Counted from the first letter of the stretch, positions 13,534-16,393 are shown. The stretch is 42,812 nucleotides of DNA from a virus (IMGVR_UViG_2872192773_000007); one strand, 5' to 3'. A program made the numbers and translations. The notes: generated from the sequence alone by a model not told the origin.

Positions 13534-13647
13534 TGACCTTTCTTAAAGTACTCCAACCTACTGAATCCTAAGGGATACGGCTTTAAGCCTCCTTGCAGAG
13601 TTACTTACTGTAACCCACTGTGTAACCCTCTCAGGGCATACAGACAT

Positions 13648-13720
13648 ATGATTCAGCTATCCAGTAGTCACAAACTTCCAGCAGTCTACTATCTCTACCA
13701 GCGTAACGGCGTCTACTACT
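13648..13720 (+). pseudogene. Tyrosine recombinase (integrase), N-terminal 24 codons only
   Basis: ATG 13648 encodes MIQLSSSHKLPAVYYLYQRNGVYY, ending at the IS911 end. It lies 115 nt downstream of tRNA-Gly in the same orientation, the classic tRNA-int island layout. Confidence 0.6.
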
Positions 13721-13728
13721 TGAAGTGG

Positions 13729-14568
13729 TCAACAAAAACTGGCCACCGAGTTAGAGTTTTTCCAGTATCGATTTTCCGATTCGTTTGGGGGTAACCCACC
13801 GTTATATTCGTGCGGTCTTAGTGCACTGTAATATCCAACGATATAGTCCGTTATGGCGTGAGCTGCCTCGCTGAAGCTTACGTAACCCACCACCGGCATC
13901 CATTCGTTCTTCAGACTCCTGAAGAAGCGTTCCATTGGGCTGTTATCCCAGCAGTTTCCGCGCCGGCTCATACTCTGTCTGATCTGGTATCGCCACAATA
14001 ACTGCCGGAACTGCCTGCTCGTATAATGACTGCCCTGATCGCTGTGGAACATCACCCCGCCGGGCTTACCACGGGTTTCCCATGCCATTTCCAGCGCTTT
14101 CATGGTGAGCCTGCTGTCCGGCGAGAACGACATGGCCCAGCCCACTGGTTTTCTTGCGAACAGGTCGAGAACAACGGCGAGGTACGCCCAGCGCTTACCC
14201 GTCCAGATATAGGTCACATCACCGCACCACACCTGATTTGGCTCGGTCACGGCGAACTGCCTTTCAAGGTAGTTAGGGATAGCAACATGTTCATGACCAC
14301 CACGTTTATACCGGTGAGTCGGCTGCTGACAGCTGACCAGCCCCAGCTCTTTCATGAGCCTGCCAGCAAGCCAGCGTCCCATCTGGTAGCCTCTCCGGGT
14401 TGCCATTGTGGCGATGCTTCTTGCTCCGGCCGAACCGTGGCTGATGCCATGTAGCTCAAGTACCTGACTGCGTAATACAGCCCGTCTGCCGTCTGGTTTT
14501 TCAGGACGGTTTTTCCAGTATCTGTAGCTGCTGCGATGAACCCCGAACACATGGCAGAGTGTGACCAC
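13729..14568 (-). CDS. IS911 OrfB (transposase catalytic part)
   Basis: 279-aa ORF with [16 protein letters not shown] and [11 protein letters not shown]. Confidence 0.9.
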
Positions 14569-14594
14569 AGGATAATGCGCTCTGAGTTTCCCGA

Positions 14595-14897
14595 TTATCG
14601 AGAACTGTTCAGGGAGTCTGACATCAAGAGCGCGGTAGCCTTTTTTAATATTTCATTCTCCATTTCAATGCGTTGTAGCTTTTTCCTGAGCTCACGGATT
14701 TCAATTTGTTCCGGGGTAATGGGGGAGGCTTTTGGTGTTTTGCCCTGACGCTCATCACGCAGTTGTTTGACCCATCTTGTCATTGTGGAAAGGCCAACAT
14801 CCATAGCTTTGGCGGCATCTGCCACCGTGTATTTCTGGTCAACAACCAGTTGAGCGGATTCGCGTTTAAACTCTGCGCTAAAATTTCTTTTTTTCAT
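14595..14897 (-). CDS. IS911 OrfA
   Basis: 100 aa from [32 protein letters not shown]. The ORF track starts 12 codons earlier. Confidence 0.9.
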
Positions 14898-14969
14898 TGG
14901 AGCACCTGTGTTGTTCTGAGGTGAGCATATCACCTCTGTTCAGGTGGCCAAATTCAGTGTGCCACTTCA

Positions 14970-15389
14970 CTACCCGGTAAGAGCATCAAGAACGCTCATA
15001 GTGACCGCTGTGTGCCTCTGGTCGATGGGGCCTATGGTTTTATATTGGCTGACTTTATGGCGCTTGTAGAGACCCGTAGAGGCGCTGACGGTGATGACGC
15101 TATGGTGTTCGATGGTCTGCGTCTCATGAAGAACGGTTACGGTGAGCAGGTGAGTAAATGGTTTAATCGGACGTTGTTGCCTAAAGTCCTCGTAGACCGT
15201 AGCGGCTTAGCGTTTCACTCGTTTAGACATACAGTTGCGACCCAGTTAAAACAACATGGGGTCGAGTTGGCGTATGCACAGGCGATCATGGGGCATAGTT
15301 CAGGGTCTATTACGTACGACCGTTATGCTAAAGAGGTCGAGGTTGATAGGCTGGTCAATGTGATGGCTGATGTTTATAAGGAGACCTAG
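14970..15389 (+). pseudogene. Tyrosine recombinase C-terminal catalytic domain (5'-deleted)
   Basis: The in-frame translation from 14970 is LPGKSIKNAHSDRCVPLV...LAFHSFRHTVATQL...GHSSGSITYDRY. This gives the R...HxxR...Y catalytic residues, while the core-binding domain is missing. Confidence 0.8.
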
Positions 15390-15477
15390 AGGAGACCATA
15401 GTCTAGGATGACACTTACTACAGACCTGTGTGGTCATGTTTTTGACTCATAGTTTTCTCTACTTATCAAGGGATAAT

Positions 15478-15500
15478 TAATACGACTCACTATAGGGAGA
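15478..15500 (+). promoter_or_regulatory. Exact consensus bacteriophage T7 RNA polymerase class III promoter
   Basis: TAATACGACTCACTATAGGGAGA is read directly at 15478-15500 and is preceded by AATT. The predicted +1 is G15495, with transcription towards the repeats and the Rha-like gene. Confidence 0.9.
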
Positions 15501-15697
15501 AGGGACACAAAAAGTTTTCTCTTCTAGGACAACTAACCGTAACTTATCGCATCCTTTCAGGGGCGGGATGACCAATTACAGACACCAAGCGTTCTACTTA
15601 AAGTGAATGCTTCCTGTGTGCTCTGGGTCAGTCGATAAGTGAATAGCAATAAGACACAATCATCTTAATTATGGTCTCTAGTCCCTACAGGGGCTTA

Positions 15698-15791
15698 ACT
15701 TAAAGTTAACTTAAAGACACAATTAAAGATTAACTTATAGTATTACTTAAAGTTAACTTAAAGACACAATTAGAGATTAACTTTAAGTATT
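15698..15791 (+). repeat. 47-bp tandem repeat x2 built from TTAAAG-type submotifs
   Basis: Unit 1 (15698-15744) is ACTTAAAGTTAACTTAAAGACACAATTAAAGATTAACTTATAGTATT. Unit 2 (15745-15791) differs at 3 positions. Confidence 0.9.
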
Positions 15792-15882
15792 AAATAAAAG
15801 ATTTAATTAAAGACCAATTAAAGATTAACTCTAAGGGAATACCTTAAGGGGTGATGATATTTATAATAATCAATCACCAAAC

Positions 15883-15935
15883 CTATAGGTCTTCTCTAGG
15901 GTCTCTCTATAGGTCTCTCTAGGGTCTCCTCTAGG
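15883..15935 (+). repeat. Array of about 11-bp CTCTA(T)AGGGTCT repeats
   Basis: The sequence reads CTATAGGTCTTCTCTAGGGTCTCTCTATAGGTCTCTCTAGGGTCTCCTCTAGG. Confidence 0.85.
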
Positions 15936-15954
15936 CATTACCCCCAGAAGCTAA

Positions 15955-15986
15955 CTCTATGGCCCTCTATGGTCCTCTATGGCCCT
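15955..15986 (+). repeat. 10-bp tandem repeat CTCTATGGCC x3
   Basis: CTCTATGGCC CTCTATGGTC CTCTATGGCC CT. Confidence 0.9.
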
Positions 15987-16031
15987 GTACGTCATTCTTT
16001 AGGATGCCCTGTAGTTTCGTATAGCCTGATG

Positions 16032-16070
16032 CCTAGAGAGACCCTAGAGTGGCTCCTAGAGAGACCCTCC
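16032..16070 (-). repeat. Inverted copies of the CTCTAGGGTCTC repeat
   Basis: CCTAGAGAGACCCTAGAG ... CCTAGAGAGACCCTCC is the reverse complement of the 15883-15935 units. The two sets form a dyad around the 10-bp triplet repeat. Confidence 0.85.
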
Positions 16071-16228
16071 CAGTAGCTCCGCACAGCTACATCGTCATCA
16101 TCATAGTATTCAATCTCAAAGTCATTCTGTTTGCATCCTGTTGTCCTGCTGGTCTCCCTTCGCTTGGGGACTTTGAGTAGGTCAGTGGGGGTGCGACTTC
16201 AGGGTGCAAACAAAAAGGAAATCAAGCG

Positions 16229-16393
16229 ATGTCTCAACAACCACAACAACCACAACAACCACAACAAGAAATCAGCATCATTAACCTCGACCAGCTTGTG
16301 TCCATGACCTCAGTTGAAATTGCTGAGCTGACAGGCAAGGAGCACCGAAATGTCCTTCGTGATATTCGTAAGATGCTCGAAGAACTTAACGCG
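16229..16393 (+). pseudogene. Rha-family phage regulatory protein, N-terminal 55 codons, truncated by IS1
   Basis: RBS AAGGAA, then MSQQPQQPQQPQQEISIINLDQLVSMTSVEIAELTGKEHRNVLRDIRKMLEEL. The segment TSxEIAELTGKxHxNVLRDIRxML is the Phage_pRha signature. IS1 starts at 16394. Confidence 0.7.

Follow-up and report, generated by a model that had tools for sequence, protein, structure and literature searches.

Introduction

In the satellite P4, the Ogr activator of the helper P2 acts on the late promoters Psid and PLL, and in cf-PICIs and SaPIbov5 Ccm satellite-encoded HK97-fold capsid proteins build or resize capsids. For satellites of virulent phages there is a precedent in the PICMIs, 6-kb elements of Vibrionaceae (PMC10803314). 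No satellite of the T7 group and no natural chromosomal T7-promoter island is described in the literature that we searched, which is incomplete and leaves room for a prior description. Here we analyse a 42,812-nucleotide (nt) stretch of viral DNA (IMGVR_UViG_2872192773_000007, hereafter the window), in which an initial annotation had marked the segment directly downstream of a tRNA-Gly gene (13534-16393) as a candidate island responsive to T7-group phages. On balance, we read this segment as a dead copy of a small island whose family is widespread in Enterobacterales, is wired to the RNA polymerase (RNAP) of T7-like phages and is most likely a satellite or parasite. Related loci compared with the window are given L-numbers (e.g. 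L001, L031).

Like PICMIs and marine VEIMEs, the islands are integrative elements of ~5-6.5 kb with minimal gene content and defence cargo (PMC10803314; PMC9618062). Both of those groups parasitise virulent phages (PMC10803314; PMC9618062), whereas for the islands such a lifestyle is suggested by their sequence. PICMIs lie beside fis, are induced by AlpA, have no capsid gene and are packaged as concatemers in full-size capsids. The islands, in contrast, use a tRNA-Gly site, carry promoters for a helper RNAP and, in their long forms, encode an HK97-fold homologue. The PICMI core comprises int, alpA and a replication protein, and scans of island proteins detected neither an AlpA nor a Rep family.

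Long-form islands resemble cf-PICIs and SaPIbov5 Ccm in that the element carries its own capsid-protein homologue. However, cf-PICIs span 10-15 kb, encode a full head module (portal, protease, terminase, connectors) and have temperate helpers, whereas the islands span 4.2-6.5 kb, encode only the capsid homologue and a putative scaffold, and would depend on virulent podophages. A Stl-type repressor, a primase-helicase with iteron origin and terS/cpm/ppi, which are features of PICIs and SaPIs, were not found when ten island proteins from four subtypes were scanned against Pfam, PHROGs, NCBIfam and PADLOC. As in P4, late genes would be switched on by the transcription machinery of the helper; unlike in P4, the switch would be the whole RNAP of the helper, acting on copies of its own promoters, and the helper genus varies by island. 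The family lacks the defining features of PICMIs/VEIMEs, of cf-PICIs/SaPIbov5 Ccm and of P4.

One component of the islands has been described before. PD-T7-4, renamed RAZR, is an RNase activated by T7 portal rings (PMC13017515), and it "often overlaps an integrase gene" (Vassallo et al., PMC9519451). Neither paper mentions a T7 promoter in the present sense or a satellite, and PMC13017515 mentions no integrase or mobile element. The induction logic proposed here looks new, the RAZR component being already known.

Results

Promoters of T7-like phages

The promoter downstream of the integrase remnant in the window (Table 1) bears out the perfect T7 RNAP promoter of the initial annotation, and its sequence did not occur in any of 100 shuffles. 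Promoter and flank are identical over 26-27 nt to T7 phi13, phi6.5, phi10 and phiOR, and transcription is predicted to start at G15495. The 81-nt context of this promoter is common to 58 E. coli chromosomes and has no match among 72,556 plasmid and vector records. Perfect T7 promoters are also present in L005, L007 and L028, as well as in L001 and L004 (one each), L002 (two), and L027 and L031 (three each). Among these, L027, L028 and L031 are IMG/VR records that place one or three T7 promoters in the same Shigella-prophage context as in the window.

Nearly all intact relatives carry one to four promoters of T7-like (Studiervirinae) phages that point at the cargo, and their specificity differs among islands, with T7, K11 and K1F types and, in a Pectobacterium island, a CACTATTGGGAGA core. 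L005 (E. coli) and L007 (Klebsiella pneumoniae ATCC 13883) combine a T7 promoter with AATTAGGGCACACTATAGGGAGA, which we take to be a K11-type promoter, and with two variants; when this whole array was used as the query, 372 Klebsiella phage records were matched. L006 and many other islands carry GACTAAACTATCACTATAGGG, which matches the annotated promoter before gene 9 of K1F-like phages, and Proteus and Kluyvera islands carry AATTAACCCACACTATAGGGAGA, with similar sites occurring 14-17 times per genome in T7-like vibriophages.

All but three of ~60 promoter sites lie on the strand of integrase and cargo, and the three are weak CACTAAAGA matches. Most sites fall into two clusters, ~650-740 and ~1200-1260 nt past the integrase stop codon; the few matches inside genes are due to chance. 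Scans of two islands showed no enrichment of sigma-70-type promoters or of intrinsic terminators, and no convincing host-type promoter ahead of the cargo. In E. coli islands of the T7 type, the leader described below is preceded by a segment that is deleted in the window and holds a second, imperfect T7-like site, AATCAATACGACTTACTAATAGGAGACAC, itself preceded by three copies of AATCAATACG (L002:21381-21426, L001:21170-21199).

The polymerase that would read these promoters is not encoded alongside them. The window was searched for homologues of the T7 RNAP, DNA polymerase, portal, capsid and terminase and yielded none, in line with the initial claim that it encodes no single-subunit RNAP. Likewise, none of 35 related loci holds a T7-like protein gene, and the island proteins have no significant match in the T7 genome.

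An origin-like non-coding region

The non-coding stretch between the integrase remnant and the first cargo gene (15390-16228) measures 839 bp; it is repetitive, as initially described, and longer than the ~600 bp given there. A conserved element 3' of the promoter (Table 1) recurs in ~25 loci, and in a 13-sequence alignment its core is invariant across genera. This element is common to islands with different promoter types and host genera, so its reader is probably not a helper-specific factor, and it is a candidate island-specific cis site or RNA. Rfam holds no family that matches the leader or the non-coding region.

The AT-rich array that follows has seven YTAAAG motifs in the densest 150-nt bin of the window (15676), out of 24 on the whole plus strand. 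In T7, the densest bin holds eight, at nt 176 in the short repeats of the left end, in the same strand sense. Density and strand of the motif in the array match T7 nt 150-330, and the spacing is ~11-12 bp. The AT-rich block also gives weak matches (E ~1-3) at left ends and primary-origin regions of T7-like phages.

In T7 origins (phi1.1A/B, phiOL, phiOR), a T7 promoter leads into AT-rich DNA that contains primase sites, and the T7 primase recognises the pentamers GGGTC, TGGTC and GTGTC. The non-coding stretch of the window contains 18 of these pentamers, against 3.5±1.8 in shuffles (21.5/kb, compared with 4.3/kb window-wide), and that of L002 (L002:20430-21644) contains 32, against 5.3±2.2, an enrichment of 4-6x over shuffles that was counted post hoc and is inflated by tandem repeats. 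The repeat families differ between islands, and all embed pentamers; in L002, for instance, GATGACCATAGGC x12.5 carries TGGTC on the minus strand. In the window, CCTAGAGAGAC is an inverted copy of GGTCTCTCTAG, which yields inverted arms of 31 nt at 15898-15928 and 16038-16068.

The islands share with T7 origins and the T7 concatemer junction a class III promoter followed by an AT-rich region, YTAAAG repeats on the transcribed strand and dense primase sites. In the islands, however, the AT-rich block begins ~200 nt past the promoter, a longer spacing than in T7, where it follows directly, and neither a terminal repeat nor a class II pause is present. By its layout, the array together with the promoter is a candidate T7-type replication origin.

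The likeness is one of anatomy. Except for the promoter, nothing in the window locus aligns to T7, so that the T7-end-like repeats of the initial annotation hold for motif, density and orientation and fail for alignment. Against 50,697 phage records, blastn with the locus returned nothing at E≤1e-5 and only promoters and weak AT-rich matches at E≤10; non-coding DNA outside the promoters aligns to no phage record.

Directly before the first cargo gene lies a leader hairpin that nhmmer detects in 23 loci, in front of differing first genes. Its consensus fold has 30 pairs, five of them with compensatory changes, and the window copy has a minimum free energy of -42.9 kcal/mol (z = -3.0). It may act as an RNA-processing or translation-control element.

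Cargo of the intact islands

In most islands, the integrase is a tyrosine recombinase of 516-545 amino acids (aa). In long forms, a gene overlapping its stop codon is a full-length match to PADLOC PD-T7-4 (E 1e-102; Pfam DUF4145, 1.5e-13), a system defined by a protein that joins a zinc finger to a DUF4145 (HEPN) domain. Integrase and RAZR genes make up the side of the island that the host would transcribe. RAZR is absent from the island subtype of the window, where the repeats directly follow the integrase stop codon.

Behind the promoters and the leader, the cargo is arranged as a DNA-binding protein, a 59-76-aa protein, a 136-163-aa protein and a 326-400-aa protein. The first of these varies between islands and is KilA-N-like (187 aa), Rha/Ant (233-242 aa) or a weak Rha match (161-176 aa). 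The conserved 59-76-aa protein carries an IDPRTPEGR motif. The third, annotated as DUF6971 at NCBI, is charged in its C-terminal half, where Glu, Lys and Arg are abundant, and this coiled-coil protein is putatively scaffold-like.

The 326-400-aa protein is, by its predicted structure, a homologue of HK97-fold major capsid proteins. An earlier AlphaFold model from a shallow alignment was unusable (predicted local distance difference test, pLDDT, 39), whereas an AlphaFold2 model from a 30-sequence alignment reaches pLDDT 64 and a predicted template-modelling score (pTM) of 0.63, with the core at pLDDT 70-90. This model has 159 Foldseek matches to viral structures at E≤1e-3; the named top matches are nearly all capsid or head proteins, and the best structural matches are encapsulin-type shells. 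The protein is 35-44% identical across island subtypes, and a profile search of 1.84 billion representative proteins retrieved only 71 relatives. C-terminal immunoglobulin-like domains, which are frequent on capsid proteins, occur in 2 of these 71, and a single UniRef name, "DUF4043", is a hint only. The capsid homologue has no match in Pfam, PHROG, PADLOC or NCBIfam, and profiles of this protein and of the 59-76-aa protein found nothing meaningful among PDB sequences.

A hairpin followed by TTTATTTTG lies directly after the capsid stop codon (L014:14777-14812, with equivalents in L016, L021, L015, L007, L005 and L006). The stem sequence differs between islands, and the placement is that of Tφ in T7, which likewise follows the capsid gene, gene 10. 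Beyond the hairpin, a strong Shine-Dalgarno sequence precedes a hydrophobic open reading frame (ORF) of 21-33 aa, e.g. MDLHKVYLGVFLLKLALVVWLMAIRR or MSNLMLLYLVLLLVYYVVEEF (L014:14855-14945), which may encode a small membrane toxin or a holin-like peptide.

Not all islands share this cargo. Two forms of ~5.45 kb, from Morganella and Citrobacter braakii (L013:13610-14242, L023:13599-14186), carry, downstream of their promoters, a serine recombinase/invertase gene along with other small genes. Islands of this type are without the leader and capsid module, and the short E. coli forms likewise carry other small genes.

Distribution and mobility

With the window locus as the query, megablast detects relatives in 261 of the 5,426 complete E. 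coli genomes searched; with a full island as the query, at least 385 of them match. All E. coli island matches are chromosomal, and their non-coding part is unannotated. The E. coli site is glyU, a tRNA-Gly(CCC) gene beside actS. Here, as in relatives generally, the island begins directly after the tRNA with TGACCTTTCTTAAAGTA and its far end repeats the last 18-24 nt of the tRNA (e.g. L002 18664-22939, 4,276 bp), so that the relatives combine an integrase beside a tRNA with tRNA 3' repeats at both borders, as tRNA-integrative elements do. An integrase-based scan adds about 15 further Enterobacterales genera; the genera found include Klebsiella, Citrobacter, Enterobacter, Kluyvera, Buttiauxella, Shimwellia, Proteus, Morganella, Pectobacterium, Lonsdalea, Serratia, Rouxiella, Edaphovirga and Shigella. 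Relatives are present on 80 metagenome contigs as well.

Island sizes fall at 4.2-4.36, 5.45-5.49 and 6.16-6.45 kb, with one 9.1-kb copy that contains an IS66-family insertion. Each of these lengths times a whole number gives ~37-39 kb, near the length of a T7-like genome (9 x 4.2-4.36, 7 x 5.45-5.49 and 6 x 6.16-6.45 kb). The pattern hints at concatemer packaging, yet related islands are not independent of one another, and it is statistically too weak to be counted as evidence.

L005 from E. coli and L007 from K. pneumoniae are 94.6% identical over the entire 6.4 kb, whereas their sole alignable flank is 72% identical. On several metagenome contigs (L038:1-6804; also L037, L039, L054 and L057), the module of promoter, leader, KilA-N, small, scaffold and capsid genes is joined to an unrelated 524-aa integrase, in an insertion site that is not tRNA-Gly and with flanking sequence common to all. 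In the window and three other records, the insertion is in a prophage-borne tRNA-Gly(UCC) gene, not glyU. Together, the near-identity of L005 and L007, the module on another integrase and the tRNA-Gly(UCC) insertions point to recent horizontal movement.

Logan/metagenome contigs of ~6.4-6.9 kb were considered as excised circles and rejected, as they proved to be linear assembly fragments, running from att to att or from flank to flank, whose ends do not overlap. L007 corresponds to positions 8847-15281 of scaffold NZ_KN046818 of the K. pneumoniae type strain ATCC 13883. It is an intact long form with RAZR, the capsid homologue and promoters of the T7 and K11 types, so that this strain is a convenient experimental system. 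Intact islands are also present in E. coli FT130 (NZ_CP040090; two T7 promoters) and ESY003 (NZ_CP086340; T7 and K11 types), and O26 strains such as 2013C-4225 carry an island of the K1F type.

The copy in the window

The coordinates of the window copy are collected in Table 1. ARAGORN predicts four tRNA genes at 13223-13533, namely Met(cat), Arg(tct), Thr(tgt) and Gly(tcc). Temperate coliphages hold similar Met-Thr-Gly clusters at 93-94% identity, Arg being absent from the annotation of those records, and the tRNA-Gly of the window is on this ground prophage-borne, as first proposed. The left attachment site (attL) and integrase fragments are present, and attR is missing.

Table 1 Features of the island copy and its borders in the window
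Feature	Position	Strand	Basis and remarks
tRNA-Gly(UCC)	13459..13533	+	last of 4-tRNA prophage cluster; integration site; 3' end = attL core
Integrase N-terminal remnant, 24 codons, MIQLSSSHKLPAVYYLYQRNGVYY	13648..13720	+	ORF list; identical N-terminus in L033
IS911-type element of the IS3 family, 1249 bp	13721..14969	-	OrfA and OrfB translations
Integrase C-terminal remnant (tyrosine-recombinase catalytic domain)	~14970..15389	+	residues ~380-519
Perfect T7 class III promoter TAATACGACTCACTATAGGGAGA	15478..15500	+	23/23 to 23-nt consensus (-17 to +6); reads towards cargo
Conserved non-coding element, ~170 nt	15533..15700	+	3' of promoter; invariant core of ~45 nt, TAACCGTAACTYATCGCATCCTTTCAGGGGCGGGATGACCA
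AT-rich array of TTAACTTAAAG-type units, GC 18-23%	15695..15830	+	Tandem Repeats Finder (TRF) and composition
Short tandem repeats	15883..16068		GGTCTCTCTAG x4, 15888-15935; CTCTATGGCC x3, 15955-15986; CCTAGAGAGAC x3, 16032-16068 (TRF)
Conserved leader hairpin, ~95 nt	16112..16215	+	directly 5' of ribosome-binding site of first cargo gene
Rha/Ant-like gene, 5' part, ~54 codons	16229..16392	+	ORF; cut by IS1
IS1, 769 bp	16393..17161	+	truncates cargo operon; further copies at 8631-9399 and 25581-26348

Comparison with L031, a near-identical locus with an intact integrase of 519 aa, confirms that the integrase of the window was reduced to an N-terminal stub and the catalytic domain by an IS911-associated deletion. 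The start region of the full-length L031 gene (9001-9032) aligns to the window at 99.7%, and the C-terminal remnant is 98.6% identical to residues 380-519 of the L031 protein (tblastn). Since the window keeps only 24 N-terminal codons and residues 380-519 of 519, ~355 codons have been lost. Full-length integrase relatives match Pfam Phage_integrase (8.9e-19).

The first cargo gene is, as reported initially, Rha-like, opens with a 9-bp repeat and is cut by IS1. Its remaining codons align at 93% identity with residues 5-46 of the Rha protein of L006 (242 aa), and this L006 protein matches Pfam Phage_pRha (3.5e-18). The repeat consists of 3.7 units of CAACAACCA at 16235-16267 (TRF), an in-frame expansion that encodes PQQPQQPQQ. 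L028 and L031 share this start, including the CAACAACCA unit, whereas other homologues begin MSQQEISV... or MSQQGISV..., and the repeat looks like replication slippage rather than a functional element. Both L028 and L031 also share the IS1 truncation of the Rha gene while their integrase gene is uninterrupted, which indicates an old IS1 cut in this lineage and an IS911 deletion confined to the window.

The initial annotation held that the cargo further downstream has been destroyed here, and indeed tblastn with downstream cargo proteins as queries finds nothing of it in the window. The stretch 26694-28000 was considered as displaced cargo and rejected, the apparent match being another IS3-family element. 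Broken by IS911 and IS1, the window copy is dead and non-functional as a mobile element. What survives is a stub, made up of the promoter, the non-coding DNA and the first 54 codons of the Rha-like gene, and at most this stub could be transcribed by T7 RNAP.

Insertion sequence (IS) copies occur throughout the window (437-1702, 8631-9399, 11388-12505, 13721-14969, 16393-18110, 25581-26348, 26694-28000, 28362-31128, 33461-34792 and 41060-42323). They comprise three IS1, two IS911-type, several IS600-type and other IS3-family elements, a set typical of Shigella, and this saturation accounts for the fragmentation of prophage and island. The second IS911-type copy (28362-29610) is 99.9% identical to that in the integrase gene.

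Two further stretches in the window resemble genes of the Ant/Rha group. In the ORF at 12367-13014 (+), the first 46 residues are those of an ORF leaving the IS600-type copy (17973-18197) and the sequence after them matches antA/ant genes of Shiga toxin (Stx) phages, so that it looks like a fusion of IS and phage genes. The other, at 35076-35270 (-), is a distant Rha-like stretch, 32% identical to the Rha protein of the island. The two are probably part of the host prophage, not the island.

Discussion

Our analysis upholds the initial view of a foreign, tRNA-integrated island responsive to T7-group phages, in that the relatives are discrete and att-flanked and carry promoters of several T7-like genera. 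Of the explanations offered at the outset, the satellite fares best. It draws on the integration at tRNA genes, the helper promoters aimed at the cargo, the T7-origin-like anatomy, the capsid-fold protein with its Tφ-like, terminator-like hairpin, RAZR, and the near-identity of islands between genera.

In this model of island function, the element would remain silent until a T7-like phage injects and makes its RNAP, which would then transcribe the island operon. Together with the AT-rich region dense in primase sites, the phage polymerase would prime replication by the replisome of the phage, in the manner of a T7 origin. Capsid assembly of the helper may then be diverted or replaced by the capsid and scaffold homologues, so that island DNA is packaged and helper yield is reduced, and the integrase would reinsert the island in a new host. 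More tentatively, these islands could be the first known satellites of Studiervirinae, with a length of 4-6.5 kb, helper-RNAP promoters that serve as both switch and replication primer, promoter sets specific to the helper genus, capsids built or remodelled with an HK97-fold protein of their own, and RAZR.

Several observations weigh against the satellite. Transcription, excision, replication and packaging are deduced from sequence features. The short E. coli forms (4.2-4.4 kb) and some ~5.5-kb forms lack the capsid homologue, and no replication initiator, terminase, portal or excisionase was recognised among the scanned island proteins. None of 23 short metagenome contigs is circular, none has a capsid gene running into an integrase gene, and the IMG/VR matches seem to be prophages called in the genomes of isolates rather than DNA from virions. 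The primase-site and repeat statistics are post hoc, and RAZR, as an abortive-type RNase, fits a purely defensive role. The resemblance to T7 genome ends is also partial. Processing of T7 concatemers needs the class II pause, ATCTGTT, which is absent 3' of the promoters in 15 of 15 islands checked, and homology to the T7 terminal repeat was not found. The earlier suggestion of a genome-end mimic therefore retains the short YTAAAG arrays as its weak support, without the pause or the terminal repeat.

The main rival, which we regard as less likely, is a mobile anti-phage defence island in which phage-RNAP promoters sense infection and drive toxic or interfering proteins. In one form of it, the KilA-N/Rha proteins, a decoy shell made of the capsid-like protein and the small hydrophobic peptide would be the effectors, leading to abortive infection or a reduced burst. 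Runaway replication may in addition soak up phage polymerase, primase and replisome, and the island would spread by other routes only. This explanation gains from RAZR/PD-T7-4, a proven anti-T7 system, in the long forms (PMC13017515), so that the decoy or abortive-infection sensor mentioned in the initial annotation is partly true of the relatives. It gains also from the swapping of cargo behind the conserved leader, as in defence hotspots, from short forms with one or two small genes only, from the failure to find a packaging signal, terminase or circular form, from the encapsulin-type shells as best structural matches of the capsid homologue, and from the Shine-Dalgarno sequence and hydrophobic ORF after the hairpin. 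However, an HK97-fold homologue with a scaffold-like partner and a Tφ-like hairpin is a virion-building layout and not a typical effector set, and the T7-origin-like anatomy is conserved. Tight sizes, an intact integrase and near-identical islands across genera argue for efficient horizontal transfer. The satellite and defence readings are not exclusive, because known satellites also defend their hosts.

It is very improbable that the segment derives from a temperate T7-like phage with its own RNAP, as a remnant whose promoter and repeats are a concatemer junction or left end. Such an origin would account for the integrase beside a tRNA, the T7 promoter and the YTAAAG repeats like those of the T7 left end. 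However, the relatives are complete and att-bounded at merely 4.2-6.5 kb, and RNAP, DNA polymerase, portal, T7-type capsid and terminase are absent from the window and the related loci tested. Beyond the promoter, neither T7 nor the phage records searched show nucleotide homology to the segment, and single islands combine promoters of different phage genera.

An ordinary piece of a lambdoid prophage (a moron or regulatory region), with a promoter match due to chance or to an assembly or vector artefact, would suit the position inside a prophage beside phage tRNAs and Ant/Rha-like genes but can hardly be right, as a 23/23 match never arises in shuffles, the island occupies chromosomal glyU outside any prophage in hundreds of E. 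coli and in other genera as a discrete att-flanked unit, the Shigella arrangement recurs in three other assemblies with one to three promoter copies, and no plasmid or vector record shares the promoter context.

Few phages are as well studied as T7 and its relatives, on which both phage therapy and biotechnology rely heavily; if the satellite interpretation is true, a gap in the known satellites would be filled. A practical caution is that a perfect, unannotated T7 promoter is present in the chromosome of ~1% of complete E. coli genomes. Natural parts that the islands would supply include arrays of orthogonal promoters, leaders, a capsid gene of minimal size and compact cassettes that can be mobilised. 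The range of clinical E. coli, Klebsiella and Shigella hosts open to T7-, K11- and K1F-type phages could be influenced by the islands. If true, the sensing of infection by way of the RNAP that the phage itself makes would be a novelty among satellites or defence islands, and it would explain why RAZR (PD-T7-4) sits by an integrase.

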